Virus genome (UHGV): UHGV-0038079
Strand: one strand, 5' to 3'
DNA: 27,742 nucleotides
Origin: a virus
Shown: piece after piece, positions 17,288 through 23,945 of the stretch
Position numbering within the stretch: the first letter of the stretch is position 1
Layout of the letters: each line of letters begins with the position of its first letter
Program-made: the position numbers and the translations under genes
Notes under the pieces: model-generated
The model's input: only the letters and a program-made list of their open reading frames with translations
Told to the model about the DNA's origin: nothing
Databases searched by the model: none

Positions 17288-18605
17288 TCTCGATATCCTC
17301 GTCGGTAATAGATGCCCCGATGCCGGTGACATCAGAGTTTTCGCGTAGGTCGGTCATTGCCGCCTTACGCGTCATCAATCCGTCGCCCAGCGCGGTGCTG
17401 ATCGCGGTGGTGGTATTTACGGCCACCGTTGAGCGGTCAACGTCAGACATTTGCCAGAGCGGGTTAAACTCAAACGTGAAATCGTCCGGCAGCGGCTTGC
17501 CAAGCTCCGAACGATGCATGATGTCCAGTATCCGACGCATCGGCAGCCGTAAGCGGCGTTCCTGCAACGAGCTCACCCGGTCGTAATAGTTGGCGAGGTC
17601 TGCGTCACCGGTAGAGAAGCCTTTCGGGGACTGCCCGAAAAGGCGCACCAGCGGGATACCAACGGCACCGCTTATCTGCTCAGCGAACTGCGAAAGAATG
17701 TCATCCAGACCACTGAAGCTGTACTGGTGGGTTTCGAACTTATCCCGCGAGTCCATGAGCGTCATGCCTTCATTGCTCTGGAACTGGCGGATCAGGTCGA
17801 TGTTCTTCAGCAACGCTTCGAACGCTGGGCCACCAAGCGCGATAATCTCGCGCAGCTTCTCCACGCTGTAGGTGCGCAGATGCGCTTTGTAGACCAGCTG
17901 AGCCGCGCCGAGAGTGGCGCTGTCGAACGCAGTAAGCCGATCCCAGATTCGCTCTACAACCGACATTCCCCATTCGTTTTCGGTCATCTTCTGCTGGAAT
18001 GGCAGCGTCACCCCGTCGAAGCGAATAAGGCGGCTGTGATGGATGCGCCAGGCTGGAATGCCCGTGGCAGTGGTCACCACATCGTAAAACTCAGGTTTGC
18101 CGAGATCCGGCCCCATATCTTTAATGCGGCGGGTCAGCACCGGGTTAATCATCCAGCGGTCGAGTGGGAGAACGCCCTTAAACTTGCCTTCTCCAATGGT
18201 TTCGAGCCTCAGCGGGGTCATTGGTGCCTGCCCCTCAATCATGATGAAACCCACCGCGCCGCCGTAGAGACGCGACCATTTCAGCACGTCGTTCAGCGCA
18301 TCCCAGATTTGCAACTCATCCAGTTGTGATTCGAGAATGCCGCGATCTTTTGCATCAATTTCCGAAGTGATGCGAATGCCTTTGCGGGTCATATCATCCG
18401 GGATAGCATCGACCGCTTCGCCGATGATCCAGGACGAACGATAGGACCATTCCACCAGCATGCGGTTGCGACTGGTGAAGTTAGCCCGGTAGGTCGATGC
18501 TGAGTGCTGGTTAGGCGTCTGCATTCCCACGCGGGCGACAAAGTTCTCATAGCCATCAGCGGTGGCCTGCGCAGTTCTCCGCAGGGCTTGTTTGTTTCGT
18601 GCCAT
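17139..18605 (-). CDS. Portal protein, 488 aa
   Basis: Large protein immediately downstream of terminase large subunit; start overlaps the TerL stop. Confidence 0.7.
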   Translation of the reverse strand: MARNKQALRRTAQATADGYENFVARVGMQTPNQHSASTYRANFTSRNRMLVEWSYRSSWIIGEAVDAIPDDMTRKGIRITSEIDAKDRGILESQLDELQIWDALNDVLKWSRLYGGAVGFIMIEGQAPMTPLRLETIGEGKFKGVLPLDRWMINPVLTRRIKDMGPDLGKPEFYDVVTTATGIPAWRIHHSRLIRFDGVTLPFQQKMTENEWGMSVVERIWDRLTAFDSATLGAAQLVYKAHLRTYSVEKLREIIALGGPAFEALLKNIDLIRQFQSNEGMTLMDSRDKFETHQYSFSGLDDILSQFAEQISGAVGIPLVRLFGQSPKGFSTGDADLANYYDRVSSLQERRLRLPMRRILDIMHRSELGKPLPDDFTFEFNPLWQMSDVDRSTVAVNTTTAISTALGDGLMTRKAAMTDLRENSDVTGIGASITDEDIENAEDEAPPGIGELDDKPPEPPGGDPISNEPTADSAGGRGHRKWSLRWFK

Positions 18606-20227
18606 CAGGCCTGTCTCCCTAGCAGCTCCCAGATGTTCAGGGCTGAATTCATTGGCGCGTAGCTGATCATCACCGAGTCGGCAAGGTTTGGCGACCGGGT
18701 TCCATCAGGCTGTTTATCAATAACGATTTTTCCCACACCATTAATGGAATAGGTCGGCTGCGAAAGCTCGATGATGAGTTTATCTTTGAGTGCCATGCCA
18801 CTGCTGATTGAGATGATTTCGTCCGGGTTGTAAGCCATACCTTCAATCACGGCGCGCCAGGTATTCTGAAAAAGTTTACGTAACCGCCACCAGCTCTGGG
18901 CTTTGGCGTTAGCGAAGAAGTCCTTGTTCAGACGTGCGGCTTGCCCGTTGTCACCGCGCACCGCTTCGTCGTCCGGATCAAACACCGCGCCGCTACCGCG
19001 AAACGGTGTAGCGAGTATTGACGGTCGACGCGCAGCGTTACGCTGTTCGTTGATAGCGCGTGCATCGCCGCGAACGCCAGCGCCCAGCCCGTCCTCATCA
19101 AAGCGAAACTCTTCGAGGTTGTCCTGTTCGCAAAAACCGAAGACCTTCTCGACGGACTGATAAATGTCGCTGCCCACACCGGACCATTCCCGCACATTCT
19201 CCAGGAGGAAGCCATGACGGGTGGAAAAGGCATTTTTGTCCCTGCCTTCGTCGGCGACATCCATCGCGCCAAGTCGTTTGCCTGTTGGCTGGATCCCCAG
19301 TTTGATATGTGCATCAACGGCAGCCTGTACCCATTCGGATGGAATCAGGACGCCTTCCGCTGATGCGCTGTAGTTCAGGTCAAGTTCCTGTGCCACCACC
19401 ACCGGATTATCGATTTTCTCGCATTCCCTGCGATACCACTCTTCATCCTTGCGAGGATCATCCCGCCAGTGGAATGTGAATACCGGTATCTTCCCGCCAT
19501 GACGCTTCTGAGCGAACGGGTTCGCCATGCCGTTAACTGAACTCAGGTCGATACGGCAACGCGTCGTTTGTGACAACGCCGCATCAATCAGCAAAGGACG
19601 CTGAAGGAATGCAGCCTCATCAACCAGATAAAGCGTGGTACGGTCACCACGACCAATATTATCGCCAGCCTCGCCTTTGATAACGGCACCAGTTTCAGGA
19701 AACTCAACACGCATATATGGCGCGTGCTTCTTCTCGCTCCACGAACCGCGAAACTCTACAGGTAGCGTTTCCACGAACTTGCGCGCCTTCCAGAACAACG
19801 CTTTCGGGTCACCAGTGCTGTCGACGTATTCCTCTTTACGGGAGCCGAAACCGATAACCATTTCTTTGTTGAAGAGACAAAGCGAGCAGGCCAGTCCGAT
19901 CGCGGTCCAACTGAGCCCCATTTCACGGGATTTTTCGGTAATACCATTCTCCCGATTACCCCAGCGTTCCATAATCCAGTGGATCCACTCCTCCTGCTTA
20001 GGGAAGAGTAAAAACGGAATGGTCACCGGCAGGCCATAATCAATATTACGCGGGTCCGTTGTCATGCCCCAGTCGATGATGAACTGAGCCGGGTTGGTCC
20101 GGTAAAACTGCTTCAATACGGGCAATATTTCAGGATTCTGGCGAATGCGCTGTAGGCGTTCCATCCGCCATTCAAAAACTATCTGGTAATCAGGATGTTT
20201 AAAATCGAAGGGGAATGGTAACGGCAT
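18605..20227 (-). CDS. Terminase large subunit, 540 aa
   Basis: Size and position after the small subunit; ATPase-type N-terminal region and nuclease-type C-terminal region. Confidence 0.85.
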
Positions 20228-20229
20228 AC

Positions 20230-20781
20230 TTAGCCCATCATTTTTCTATACGCCTCTGCAGCCTGCTCCGGAGTTAAGTTGGTAATTTCTGTTCTGACTG
20301 GTCCTCCATCAGCGCCAGTCACTTCATTTTTGACGTTGTCTTTAAACGCCTGAACAGAAACATGACGCCCAAGCAACTCAAGGTTTTTAACCTTATCAGG
20401 CCATTTGATTTTCTTCAGGAGTGCGGCGCTATCTGCGGATGCCATCTCCACGACATCCATTCCCGATAACGTTGTGCGCCATACCTTAGGCCAGTCTTTA
20501 ATGGGTTTTAGCTCACCGTTTTGCAGGAGAATGTCAAGCACATCCATCTGGTCGATTTCAATAAGGCGATTAAGTACATATTCTGCATTAATACCAACAA
20601 GATCATTGCGTTGTGCTTTCAGTTCGGCGATTCTTAACTTGATGTCAGGTTTTGACAGGTTTTCGGATGCGGTACGGTTAGCTGTCTTTGCGCTGTACCC
20701 CGCCCGAATAGCCGCTTGCGTGGCGTTTAAATCGATGAGGTACTCGCGACAGAACATTTCTTGCTTGTCGGTGAGTGCCAT
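20230..20781 (-). CDS. Terminase small subunit, 183 aa
   Basis: N-terminus [30 protein letters not shown] is a typical small-terminase DNA-binding motif. Confidence 0.8.
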
Positions 20782-20803
20782 AAATTACCTTTAAGGATTT
20801 CAC

Positions 20804-21022
20804 ATGAGTGATGAATACAAACAGAAAATCGGCATTCCAGATGACCATACACTGGAGCTTGTCTCTTCTAACTGGAAAGGAGCTCGAAAAGGTCAGGATA
20901 CCGATGAATACCTTTACCGTGAGTTGGACACTGCGGGAAATGTAGTGGCCACTTATGAAATTAAAGATTCAACTTCTATATATCCACCATTCGGAAGATC
21001 TATCTCTTATAAGAAGGTCTAA
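20804..21022 (+). CDS. Hypothetical protein, 72 aa, divergent from the terminase operon
   Basis: SD AAGGA 7 nt upstream of ATG 20804; plus-strand gene embedded in a minus-strand operon; no family recognised. Confidence 0.5.
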   Translation: MSDEYKQKIGIPDDHTLELVSSNWKGARKGQDTDEYLYRELDTAGNVVATYEIKDSTSIYPPFGRSISYKKV

Positions 21023-21355
21023 GCAACCAGCTGACCAGCATGGCATTTCCGATTGAACATTTACACGTCCAGGATAATGCCATGTCTATTCCACAGTTCT
21101 ATCGTCACCTACCGATATTGGCGTGAACTACACGCACTTGACATCAGCAGGAGCGAAGTACGCCCCCTCCCGTCTAGGTCGCCAGCGGCACAAAGCCATT
21201 AACCAGCTCAGGCTGACGTCGTGACATCTTGCCCGTTTACTCGCCGCCGTCGTTCGTATTCAGTTTGATGATGTAGATGTCGGACATTGAGATCCTCTTT
21301 ATCCGCTTGTGGGGATATCAGTTAAGTTATCCCGTGTAGGGTATAAGCCATTATC

Positions 21356-21381
21356 AAAGCCATTCTGCAAGGAATGGCTTT
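21356..21381. terminator. Strong 10-bp stem hairpin, possible weak or bidirectional terminator
   Basis: AAAGCCATTC-TGCAAG-GAATGGCTTT; flanked by only short T stretches. Confidence 0.4.
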
Positions 21382-21411
21382 TGTGATGGCAATAAAAACA
21401 GCCGCAGGAGG

Positions 21412-21660
21412 TTAGATTAAGTCTTCACGTTTTACATATTCATCGATGTGATAAAGATGCATAAACTTTTCATCATGCCCACCAAATATCTGTGTTATCG
21501 ATTCGTCATCCCGGCCTTCAACAATTAAATGCTTTTCATGTGTTCCCGGCATAAATAACGCCCTTACAACATGTTCTAAGTGGTGTTTGAACTGTATGTG
21601 AAGCTCTCTTTCATCCTCAAAAGGAATATTTTCGGTAAGTTCAAAATAACGAAATGCCAT
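21412..21660 (-). CDS. Hypothetical His- and acid-rich protein, 82 aa
   Basis: SD GGGAGG 6 nt upstream of ATG 21660; own promoter-like region with palindromes; 9 His in 82 residues. Confidence 0.55.
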   Translation of the reverse strand: MAFRYFELTENIPFEDERELHIQFKHHLEHVVRALFMPGTHEKHLIVEGRDDESITQIFGGHDEKFMHLYHIDEYVKREDLI

Positions 21661-21686
21661 ATCTACCTCCCGTATAATGAGAGCTC

Positions 21687-21715
21687 ATCATTAATGAATT
21701 TTCTTGTCATGACAA
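21687..21715 (-). promoter_or_regulatory. Predicted promoter of the 82-aa gene with overlapping palindromic operator-like sites
   Basis: Minus-strand -35 TTGTCA, 17-bp spacer, -10 AATGAT; perfect 12-bp palindrome TTGTCATGACAA (plus 21704..21715) over the -35; near-palindrome TAATGAGAGCTCATCATTA (plus 21673..21691) over the -10/start region. Confidence 0.35.
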
Positions 21716-21911
21716 TGACAAATTATTTCAGGTTCCATTAGATATAGCTTTGTAATGAACAGGCACTTATCTCAACGCAGCCCCTTACCGCGCGCCAGAT
21801 GCTCAACTTCAAGCATCAGCAATGAGATGTTTAATCTGGATTCACTCCAGAAGTAATCACCACCCTGTCTACAGAGCCAGATGTGAAGAATGATGAGTAA
21901 AATTATCGCTA

Positions 21912-22379
21912 TCATCGAAGGCATTGCATCCTGATGTATTCCTGAAGCGCTCTCAGTGCTGTTTGGTCGCGGATAATTCCGTCCCGGATACCGAGAACGT
22001 TTCGTCCAGCACTTGGAGAGAGTTCGACGGTGGCATCATTGCCCATGCCGGAGGCGCTGGAGGTTTCGGCTGAGGATGGCACAGGGGATTTTCCTTTGAC
22101 GAGCACCCTGCCACCATCATCAAGCTTGCGCCGAAGAGCATCATTTTCAGCTTTCGCATCAGCTAACTCCTTCGTGTATTTAGCATCGAGTGCATCAGCA
22201 TCACGCTGGCGCTGCTGCATGTCAGTAATGGTGGCGTTCGCCTTCTCCAGTTCACTGGCCTTGTTATCGCGCTGCTCTTTGTAGGCGATTGCGTTATCAC
22301 GGTAATGATTAACAGCCCATGACAGGCAGACGATGATGCAGATAACCAGAGCGGAGATAATCGCGGTTACTCTGTTCAT
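21912..22379 (-). CDS. Rz: Rz i-spanin
   Basis: N-terminal TM helix ([23 protein letters not shown]) then coiled-coil; ATG 22379 overlaps the endolysin stop (ATGA). Confidence 0.8.
21953..22159 (-). CDS. Rz1: Rz1 o-spanin, embedded in Rz in the +1 frame
   Basis: Lipoprotein signal with lipobox ([16 protein letters not shown]) followed by a proline-rich segment; entirely inside Rz. Confidence 0.75.
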
Positions 22380-22873
22380 TGCTGACCCCACAAACAGATT
22401 TCACGCTCAATCTCACGACGAGTCATGAGACCTTTCCATTGCTTACCGCCAGCATATGTCCAGCGACGTAGCTGATCACATGCGCCTTTGATATCGCCCT
22501 GGTTTATTTTGCGAAGAAGCGTCGATGTTCTGAAATTGCCAGCACCCACGTTGTAAATGAATGAGTAAAGAGCGCCGCGCGTTGTTTCCGGTATATCGAC
22601 TTTGATGTACGGGTTAATTTGTCTGGCGACAGTGGCAAGATCTTTATTCAGGAGGGCTTTGCATTCTGCTTCGGTATACGTTTTACCGAGCATGATGTCT
22701 TTTCCGGTGTGTCCGTGACATACAGTCCATACGCCAACGATATCTTTGTATGGTATGTAGCTGACACCTTCCAGGCCATCGTCACCACTCGGACCAGTGA
22801 TGAGCACAGACGCTATGGCAACAGCCCCACCACCAATAGCAGCAGCAACAGCCTTGCGTAATGATGGCGACAT
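22376..22873 (-). CDS. R: SAR endolysin (phage 21 R-type lysozyme), 165 aa
   Basis: N-terminal signal-anchor-release segment [18 protein letters not shown] followed by a lysozyme domain; very close to the phage 21 R sequence as recalled. Confidence 0.9.
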
Positions 22874-23206: not shown

Positions 23207-23282
23207 TGGTGCTGGTTAACGGACTTGACCCGCTACCAATTCGCTTACAAGGCGACCGCTCTACCATTGGAGCTAAACCAGC
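23207..23282 (-). tRNA. tRNA, anticodon UGU (Thr-like), 76 nt with encoded CCA
   Basis: Hand-folded cloverleaf: 7-bp acceptor stem GCTGGTT/AACCAGC, D arm GCTC-CAATGGTA-GAGC, anticodon loop CTTGTAA, discriminator A + CCA; T loop GTCAAGT has G at position 54 (non-canonical). Confidence 0.6.
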
Positions 23283-23287
23283 ATGTT

Positions 23288-23362
23288 TGGCGGGACAGCG
23301 TGGACTCGAACCACGATAAGAAGGTTAACAGCCTTCCGTAATGACCTTTATACGACTGACCC
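23288..23362 (-). tRNA. tRNA, anticodon GUU (Asn-like), 75 nt with encoded CCA
   Basis: Hand-folded cloverleaf: canonical T arm CGTGG-TTCGAGT-CCACG, anticodon arm GAAGG-CTGTTAA-CCTTC, acceptor GGGTCAG/CTGTCCC with one T:T mismatch, discriminator G + CCA. Confidence 0.6.
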
Positions 23363-23419: not shown

Positions 23420-23449
23420 ATTATGGCTAAATGGATAATTGCATGTCAA
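23420..23449 (-). promoter_or_regulatory. PR'-like late promoter (presumed Q target)
   Basis: Minus-strand perfect -35 TTGACA (plus 23444..23449, inside the last Q codons), 18-bp spacer, -10 CATAAT (plus 23420..23425). Confidence 0.5.
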
Positions 23450-23945
23450 GGCTTTTAACAGCAACATGCTTAACTTTCTCAACACGTTTACGCATTTTGA
23501 AAGCATTTTGCATTGGCTGGTACAAAACAAATAACGACGCTTTCAGGATGTCGTCAATTTCGTTTCTACAGGTTGCCAGTGAAGGTTTTCTCCATCCCTC
23601 GCCACCACGTCCACACATCTTGCGTGGCTTTGCAGTCGCGTGATAGTAGGATGCAATTGCTCGCTTAGATGAACCATGAGCGTAGTAGCTGAGGAGGATG
23701 CCAAAGGCTTTCTTGTCAATGTACATGACGGAATCGACGACCTGAGAAATCAACATTCCATCATCATCATTACACATTGGCCTTGTCATAACTCTTCCCG
23801 GCTCTACGCTCTCCATGAACTTCGCTATTACGCTGCTCATGCGCTTTTCCAGACGACCTGAATAAACCCATGCGCCCCACAGTTCAAGCCAGCCATTCAG
23901 CCACTCGTGCTGCTCTTTGGTGAGGTTTAGTTCTCTTATGCTCAT
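23427..23945 (-). CDS. Q: Late-gene antiterminator Q (phage 21/82-type family), 172 aa
   Basis: Position between ninH and the late promoter/lysis genes; motif WGAW...RPMCNDDDGMLI...LSYY as recalled for non-lambda Q families. Confidence 0.7.
   Translation of the reverse strand: MSIRELNLTKEQHEWLNGWLELWGAWVYSGRLEKRMSSVIAKFMESVEPGRVMTRPMCNDDDGMLISQVVDSVMYIDKKAFGILLSYYAHGSSKRAIASYYHATAKPRKMCGRGGEGWRKPSLATCRNEIDDILKASLFVLYQPMQNAFKMRKRVEKVKHVAVKSLDMQLSI

Follow-up and report, generated by a model that had tools for sequence, protein, structure and literature searches.

A conserved predicted sigma-70 promoter and symmetric sites as weak operator candidates upstream of a small moron-like gene in a lambdoid late region

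The question raised by this locus is whether two symmetric sequences, placed over the promoter of a gene coding for a protein of 82 amino acids (aa), are operators at which a repressor acts, as proposed in the original prediction, or whether they are incidental to a promoter of more ordinary design. The window, that is, the whole stretch of DNA analysed (27,742 nucleotides, nt), corresponds to the late region of a lambdoid prophage, whose genes are read on the minus strand. The flagged interval (21661-21720) is located directly upstream of the 82-aa gene on that strand. The surrounding genes, in the order in which they are read, are as follows:

23427-23945, minus strand: gene of the Q antiterminator
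23207-23362, minus strand: genes of tRNA-Asn and tRNA-Thr
holin gene, then lysozyme gene, then Rz/Rz1 (21912-22391), minus strand
21772-21924, minus strand: open reading frame of 50 aa, phrog_11822
21412-21660, minus strand: 82-aa gene, with its ATG at 21660-21658; acidic product with 9 His, cargo of the cassette described below
20230-20781, minus strand: gene of the small terminase subunit (Terminase_2)
18605-20227, minus strand: gene of the large terminase subunit

The comparison of the interval 21250-21950 with 50,697 phage records by megablast gave matches to its two flanks only (query positions 63 onwards and 490-700), and a tblastn search of phage records with the 82-aa protein yielded no match. 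In phage mEp460 both flanks are adjacent and, according to a realignment by eye, a terminator alone stands between them, while in phage epsilon34 the same slot is occupied by an annotated rho-independent terminator and an unrelated gene. Given that the flanks are contiguous in the former and enclose other cargo in the latter, the segment from approximately 21399 to 21747 is an insertion, with a size of about 350 bp. Its guanine plus cytosine (GC) content is 36.6% (21401-21747), compared with 50.1% for the whole window, and this value is the minimum of all 347-bp stretches. The insertion and its borders comprise the following elements:

21399-21747, minus strand: inserted cassette (promoter, gene and terminator remnant), extra with respect to mEp460 and other cassette-lacking phages
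21391-21411, minus strand: remnant of an intrinsic terminator, with the T-tract kept and the stem destroyed
21347-21390, unstranded: long imperfect hairpin or "linker", reading GCCATCACAAAAGCC...GGCTTTGATAATGGC in the sense direction; 3' border of the cassette
21735-21757, unstranded: linker remnant without the hairpin, reading CATTACAAAGCTATATCTAATGG in the sense direction; 5' border of the cassette

The cassette was found in 10 of the 5426 complete Escherichia coli genomes. Its carriers include E. coli S1 (NZ_CP010226.1, with the gene at 1339277-1339525) and strain 20. It is carried by prophages with at least four different modules of terminase and neighbouring genes, and it lies between the lysis and the terminase genes where both could be seen; in one locus (L023) it adjoins late-region genes. 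Wherever the context was visible, the 82-aa gene was oriented like the late genes, and no regulator gene was linked to the cassette in any context examined. In most orthologues the sequence AACCGCCTCCGGGCGGTTTTTT appears directly after the stop codon and provides a GC-rich stem followed by a run of at least six T. The terminator stems of two of them (L009 and L022) fold well, while the copy in the window does not form that stem and the long hairpin found beyond its terminator remnant has a poor U-tail. The terminator of the window has decayed, which leaves this copy short of a clean autonomous unit.

The term moron designates insertions that bring a promoter and a terminator of their own, deviate in GC content and are expressed from the repressed prophage (PMC3594210, PMC2629481). 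With respect to its insertion, its putative promoter, its low GC content and the terminator present in orthologues, the cassette looks like a textbook moron.

The sequences at its borders deserve attention in their own right. A fold of 82 nt is dominated by the linker hairpin (−21.5 kcal/mol, z = −3.3), and the same element is present in mEp460 and also flanks the cassette in other loci. At the 5' border, homology with mEp460 and epsilon34 ends at CATTACAAA. Recombination at these hairpin linkers of about 45 bp may carry the cassette from one lambdoid phage to another, across genera, but the element could just as well be a bidirectional terminator or a site of RNA processing. In the adjacent region, paired dyads of the form TATCC-N8-GGATA were observed 28 bp apart, with arms that are conserved and spacers that vary among phages. 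The linker hairpins and these dyads are the better-conserved candidates for functional DNA or RNA sites at this locus.

A scan of 20600-22100 for sigma-70-like sites returned a single one, TTGTCA-17-AATGAT, on the minus strand, which agrees with the consensus in 9 of 12 positions. It must be noted that such matches are common by chance, since 2.7 would be expected in 1.5 kb and one was found. The elements of the predicted promoter and leader are these:

21710-21715, minus strand: −35 hexamer TTGTCA (consensus scan), whose bases double as the conserved half of the 12-bp palindrome discussed below
21687-21692, minus strand: −10 hexamer AATGAT (consensus scan), 17 bp from the −35
21678-21682, about 21680, minus strand: predicted transcription start, from the usual distance between −10 and +1
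21666-21671, minus strand: Shine-Dalgarno sequence GGGAGG, 5 nt before the ATG

The start is predicted about 7 nt past the −10, so that the leader would measure about 20 nt. Upstream regions were gathered from 14 IMG/VR loci, eight contigs with more distant homologues and four metagenome loci; they collapse to about 11-13 distinct lineages and were laid out on the −35 and aligned (alignment A3). Thirteen orthologue upstream regions were compared, from several genera of Enterobacterales; for the seven that could be paired with a protein of the homologue list, protein identity to the window was 65-87%. Invariant in all 13 were the −35 TTG, three A residues in the spacer and the fifth position of the −10, while positions 2 and 6 of the −10 were almost invariant (A45, A48 and T49 of the alignment are positions 2, 5 and 6). 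The spacer between −35 and −10 had 17 bp in 13 of 13 orthologues, with neighbouring bases that vary freely, while the distance from the −10 to the ATG ranged from 25 to 27 nt and every leader had a GGAG-type motif in the same place. For recognition by sigma-70, the bases that count most are TTG in the −35 and those at positions 2 and 6 of the −10. Since the invariant positions are the key ones for sigma-70, they constitute good evidence, at the level of sequence, for a real promoter upstream of the 82-aa gene, from which we infer its activity and its start site. The −35 and −10 implied by the original prediction are the very positions conserved across these 13 diverged regions. In addition, a spacer motif AAAT.C (−21 to −16) is conserved, for which contacts with sigma-70 alone do not give a full explanation. 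By eye, no alternative −10, extended −10 or plus-strand promoter built from the same hexamers was conserved.

Taken together, these data are best accounted for if 21661-21747 comprises a sigma-70 promoter, followed by a short leader, that belongs to a moron inserted in a Q-dependent late operon, in the slot between Rz/Rz1 and the small terminase gene, a reading to which we assign a probability of roughly two in three (0.68). According to it, the promoter TTGTCA-17 bp-AATGAT would start a transcript near 21680 with a leader of some 20 nt and a strong ribosome-binding site (GGGAGG). In the lysogen, host RNA polymerase would produce the 82-aa protein from this moron promoter, and after induction read-through from the late promoter would also cover the gene, since it points in the direction of the late operon. 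Thus, of the proposal that control is independent of late transcription, the promoter part gains from the conservation found in the orthologues, while for the part that concerns a repressor the first palindrome does not qualify as a conserved operator and the second dyad is a weak candidate at most.

Among the alternatives, the one that survives best is that the symmetric sites are real operators, at which a dimeric or multimeric repressor encoded by the host or elsewhere in the phage would shut the promoter, possibly according to metal status. We consider it unlikely, for reasons that emerge from the sites themselves. In its favour, the sites lie over the −35 and over the −10 and +1, where repressors normally act:

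21704-21715, plus-strand reading: perfect 12-bp palindrome TTGTCATGACAA
21704-21721: three abutting hexamers TTGTCA, TGACAA and TGACAA, the first two of which form the 12-bp palindrome; E. coli lineage only
21675-21693, plus strand reading TAATGAGAGCTCATCATTA: dyad TAATGA-N7-TCATTA, a candidate operator that spans the −10 and the predicted start

The 12-bp palindrome exists and is perfect, as had been stated. With the −35 TTGTCA at 21715-21710, it spans this hexamer and the first six bases of the spacer. However, the window contains five perfect palindromes of 12 bp and first-order Markov simulations gave 7.1 ± 2.5, so that chance suffices to account for the palindrome by itself. The left half, identical with the −35, is conserved across lineages, but the right half (TGACAA) is replaced elsewhere by TGCTAC, TGTTAC, TGTGAA, CCACCT, GGCATA and others and is kept in no other lineage. 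The palindrome is therefore specific to the E. coli lineage, and its retention within that lineage is uninformative, as the copies share at least 97% identity over the entire region. As a conserved operator, then, this site fails, and only the half that serves as −35 is maintained. Such a site could come about without selection through one template-switch mutation in which a quasi-palindrome is made perfect. Most likely, the palindrome is a lineage-specific accident in which the −35 is followed by its own reverse complement. In general, a palindromic sequence that coincides with a promoter element argues only weakly for an operator if its two halves are not both conserved.

On the sense strand the three hexamers read TTGTCA, TTGTCA, TGACAA, a contiguous direct-direct-inverted array over the −35 that appears as a gain of the E. 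coli lineage and is absent from the orthologues of the Enterobacter, Cedecea, Scandinavium and Serratia lineages. It occurs once in the window and in 10 of 1500 simulated windows (0.7%), with the qualification that the pattern was defined post hoc, and this rarity speaks for an operator. The same can be said of the two substitutions that the E. coli lineage has in its promoter core, both of which miss the hexamers and the arms of the dyad.

The second near-palindrome is also present and covers the −10 and the predicted start, with the correction that GAGCTC is slightly off its centre and that its 6-bp arms are separated by a spacer of 7 nt. When the 30 nt around the −10 were shuffled, 2.4% of the shuffles produced arms of at least 6 bp with a spacer of 3-10 nt. 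At least two such dyads were found in 1.2% of the 60-bp windows of this DNA, so that several such places per 27.7 kb are expected by chance, and in 3.4% of the shuffles of the 87-nt intergenic stretch. Arguments for an operator also come from the orthologues. In an Enterobacter-type group (L009, L028 and L029) the arms TAATGA and TCATT(A/G) are kept while the 7-nt spacer varies (TGACTTC, TGACTCC, TGATTTC). Other arms are found in L022 (ATATGG-N7-CCATAT), with near versions in L017 and L015, and in L021 (ATAGTG-N5-CACTAT). Four lineages have dyads with arms of at least 6 bp over the −10 and +1, and among them the arms are of three unrelated sequences (shuffle P of 0.02-0.04 each). On the alignment, 65% of the cells were paired compared with 19-46% for slid partners, although the structure used had been supplied by one of the aligned sequences.

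Against these points, the dyad is degraded by two non-compensating changes in L024, whose protein has 87% identity, and about five lineages have it weakly or not at all, with 3-4 bp at most in L014, L018, L019, L023 and L025. From group to group the register moves by 3-4 nt, and a second register tested on the alignment gave no signal. Furthermore, the promoter itself imposes part of this symmetry, given that the left arm shares sequence with the −10 (ATGA lies within RATGAT) and the right arm takes in CTCAT, a likely start motif. On these grounds the dyad may be a weak candidate for a regulatory site, and the evidence does not require one.

The search for a regulator of the sites also counts against operators. 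Neither the window nor the early region of the prophage has a further copy of either site within one mismatch, weaker matches being at the level of chance, and a second hexamer array is missing from both. A scan of genome contigs (596 Gb) for an exact 16-mer gave about 120 unrelated matches, as predicted by chance, and nothing relevant was found in the literature on the 12-mer or on the protein accessions. Consensus strings for Fur, Zur, MntR, NikR, RcnR, LexA and CRP were scored over 21641-21770, and none of them matched on either palindrome. With these strings the best scores were 12/19 for Fur, 13/23 for Zur, 13/22 for MntR, 7/12 for NikR and 9/14 for RcnR. The best matches of Fur, MntR and RcnR fell outside both palindromes, and those of Zur and NikR overlapped them partly without matching their symmetry.

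Control by the repressor of the prophage itself was considered too. The prophage of E. coli S1, which is nearly identical (99.8%), has lambda-type operators of the TATCACCGCAAGGGATA type between its cI-like and cro-like genes, and the 17-bp operators of that immunity region are unrelated to either palindrome, which speaks against control by a lambda-type CI/Cro. Together with the presence of the cassette in prophages with different terminase modules and neighbours, this makes control by a prophage repressor seem unlikely.

The product of the gene was examined in the same regard. The composition that had been described is correct, with 9 His in 82 residues and an acidic character (18 Asp plus Glu, 9 Lys plus Arg). 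It belongs to PHROG family phrog_35226, whose function is not annotated, and no family was assigned to it in Pfam, PADLOC or NCBIfam. Homologues are scarce: 13 proteins were retrieved among 5.8 billion clusters, all from Enterobacterales where the organism was named, and a profile search of 1.84 billion representatives gave eight proteins, one of them spurious (a repetitive sequence of 1042 aa). The named members come from E. coli, Enterobacter, Scandinavium, Cedecea and Serratia. A scan of genome contigs with a peptide pattern detected no relatives, and a scan of viral contigs for the family returned one spurious short match.

The AlphaFold2 model (pLDDT 86.4) has the order beta-alpha-beta-beta-alpha-beta, which as modelled is a generic ferredoxin-like fold, and at E ≤ 0.001 a Foldseek search of viral models had no match. 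Since the product lacks a DNA-binding fold, autoregulation is unlikely, and both this and the lack of a regulator gene travelling with the cassette weigh against operators. About four of the nine His are conserved in the family: H71 is invariant, H21 nearly so, H30 is present in all members but one and at least one His is always kept at position 26/27, while H44 is partly conserved and H41, H62 and H68 are lineage-specific. Metal binding by the protein is possible but unsupported. The speculation about metal-responsive control found no support, given the lack of a consensus on the palindromes, the conservation of only about four of nine His and the generic fold.

A related proposal accepts both sites as control sites for an as-yet-unassigned regulator, with the hexamer array over the −35 and a co-varying dyad over the −10 and +1, and adds to them the movement of the cassette by means of its linkers. 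The array resembles the abutting repeats to which ribbon-helix-helix repressors such as omega bind. If this were true, the locus would represent a horizontally mobile moron under a host or prophage repressor, but we judge the combination quite improbable. Nevertheless, given that the triple array is rare and that dyads recur over the −10, some regulation may be added on top of the moron promoter.

It could also be argued that there is no functional promoter and that the gene is expressed solely in the Q-antiterminated late transcript, so that the conserved positions would reflect translation signals, RNA processing or shared descent. The constant co-orientation with the late operon, a hexamer score that is frequent by chance and a copy in the window without a working terminator would all fit this explanation. 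However, the invariant positions are those most important for sigma-70, the 17-bp spacer is fixed while its neighbouring bases are free to vary, and a terminator directly after the gene in most orthologues fits an autonomous unit within the late operon. We regard this explanation as very improbable.

Finally, the proposal that the dyad or a CUCUC-GGGAG pairing acts in RNA, forming in the late read-through transcript a hairpin that lowers translation while a short transcript without the 5' arm is translated freely, has in its favour that single-sequence folds pair the Shine-Dalgarno with a pyrimidine stretch past the −10 (window, L009 and L024) and that several arm changes are compatible with G-U pairs (L012 and L017), but it is highly implausible, given that RNAalifold gave no consensus structure (0 pairs), that fold z-scores (−1.24 to +0.5) were not significant, that accessibility of the Shine-Dalgarno in long transcripts was not consistently below that with shuffled upstream sequence (fractions of 0.05-0.92 in 14 orthologues) and that with wobble pairs allowed the dyads were no better than shuffles except in L021.

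With the promoter-overlapping boxes of Fur and related metalloregulators, the locus shares an AT-rich dyad over the −10 upstream of a His-rich protein. Each arm of the second dyad resembles a Fur half-site (7/9, by eye), but their spacing is 9-5-9 and not 9-1-9, and the best Fur match in 21641-21770 (12/19) sits over the start codon, off both palindromes.

Another parallel is the ant moron of phage P22 (immunity I), in which operators for Arc and Mnt govern promoters located inside the late operon; the likeness consists of a late-operon promoter with short symmetric sequences at the −35 and at the −10 and +1. The P22 moron carries its own repressor genes, arc and mnt, and binding to the operators has been demonstrated (PMC2629481). 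In contrast, the cassette described here is without a regulator gene, one of its palindromes is not conserved and the other is weakly supported.

With regard to its borders, the cassette can be compared with the boundary or linker sequences of lambdoid phages, a concept of module exchange cited in PMC3029335. As in those, copies of a hairpin element of about 45 bp bracket the cassette, and the homology with phages that lack it stops inside the copies.

The lambdoid morons are the known systems of the kind proposed here, represented by gene 15 of HK97 and by bor and lom of lambda, following the definition of Juhala and Hendrix summarised in PMC3594210 and PMC2629481. Unlike these, the cargo in our case is an acidic, cytoplasmic-looking protein with a ferredoxin-like fold rather than an exclusion factor of the membrane or lipoprotein type, the slot lies between Rz and the small terminase gene, the copy in the window is without a terminator stem and expression from the prophage is what we infer. 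The features in common are the insertion of one small gene in the late operon with respect to related phages, a promoter of sigma-70 type as judged from its sequence, an intrinsic terminator in orthologues, a GC content far under that of the neighbours and a patchy, horizontally spread distribution. If our reading is correct, the locus would be one more case of a well-understood design, by which a small gene can be expressed from an otherwise silent prophage. In this regard, the clean cassette of about 350 bp and its very small protein family make the gene a candidate for lysogen phenotypes such as exclusion, anti-defence or stress tolerance.

The conserved 50-aa ORF downstream of Rz is followed by a slot whose cargo varies by phage, a hot spot of recurrent insertion. 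The window carries there the 82-aa gene cassette, epsilon34 a terminator and a gene of the GIY-YIG family (locus L031, 1023-1678), and mEp460 a terminator alone (locus L003, 520-640). On either side, the cassette in the window is flanked by a copy of a long, imperfect hairpin (approximately 45 bp, hereafter the linker), and further copies occur at other loci:

Window, 21347-21390 and 21735-21757: linker hairpin copies
Orthologue loci: L012, 3889; L014, 1716 and 2115; L015, 3882 and 4267; L017, 581 and 2444; L022, 2883; L024, 448: linker hairpin copies
mEp460 (L003), 548: linker hairpin copy

The sense strand of the linker reads GCCAT[CT]ACAAA(A)GCC-stem/loop-GGCTT[TG]ATAATGGC. It must be noted that homology to the cassette-less phages mEp460 and epsilon34 stops inside the linker copies, and that mEp460 has two copies with only a terminator between them. 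The 82-nt fold around the window linker copy had a free energy of -21.5 kcal/mol (z = -3.3). The linker looks like either a bidirectional terminator or a boundary element that serves the exchange of cassettes.

Most orthologues have an intrinsic terminator after the gene, in which a GC stem precedes six or more consecutive T. The E. coli lineage has lost this stem and kept the T-tract (window 21391-21411, minus strand). Therefore, transcripts from the cassette promoter may continue into the linker hairpin and past it.

With respect to this promoter, the alignment of the 13 orthologue upstream regions revealed a conserved AAAT.C in the spacer (window 21693-21698; -21 to -16 on the sense strand; alignment columns 35-40), in which the three A's were invariant and the C nearly invariant. 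This conservation is not accounted for by sigma-70 hexamer contacts, and the extended -10 TG is absent from the spacer. Additionally, a scan of genome contigs with the 16-mer TGTCATTGTCATGACA gave matches at chance level (L033-L112), many of them in Flavobacteriaceae (Flagellimonas, Maribacter, Gillisia, and Allomuricauda). Given that some of these genomes had two or three matches, they suggest a repeated element of that family with no relation to the cassette promoter.

Three other genes of the late region were located as follows:

20804-21022, plus strand: 72-aa ORF, flanked by the cassette and the small terminase gene
23207-23282, minus strand: tRNA-Thr (TGT)
23288-23362, minus strand: tRNA-Asn (GTT)

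The 72-aa ORF, with a GC content of 40%, is oriented opposite to the entire late operon and may be a second moron. It had no match in Pfam, PHROG, PADLOC or NCBIfam. The E. coli S1 annotation lists it as a hypothetical protein, and it is missing in the context of strain 20. Both tRNA genes lie in the late-operon leader, flanked by the Q antiterminator gene on one side and the holin gene on the other.

Finally, two TATCC-N8-GGATA dyads adjoin the linker hairpin, spaced exactly 28 bp from start to start and the only matches in the window. Pairs were also present at other comparison loci:

Window, 21300-21317 and 21328-21345, plus strand: dyad pair
L002, 2922/2950; L003 (mEp460), 500/528; L009, 3841/3869; L024, 867/895; L031 (epsilon34), 789/817: dyad pairs

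The arms were kept across phages and the 8-nt spacers varied (CCACAAGC, CCTACACG, GTTAAAAG, CCTGGAGG, and TCACCAGC, among others). This is the pattern expected for real protein-binding sites or small hairpins, for which the dyads are candidates. Their consensus matches the one reported for HipB operators.
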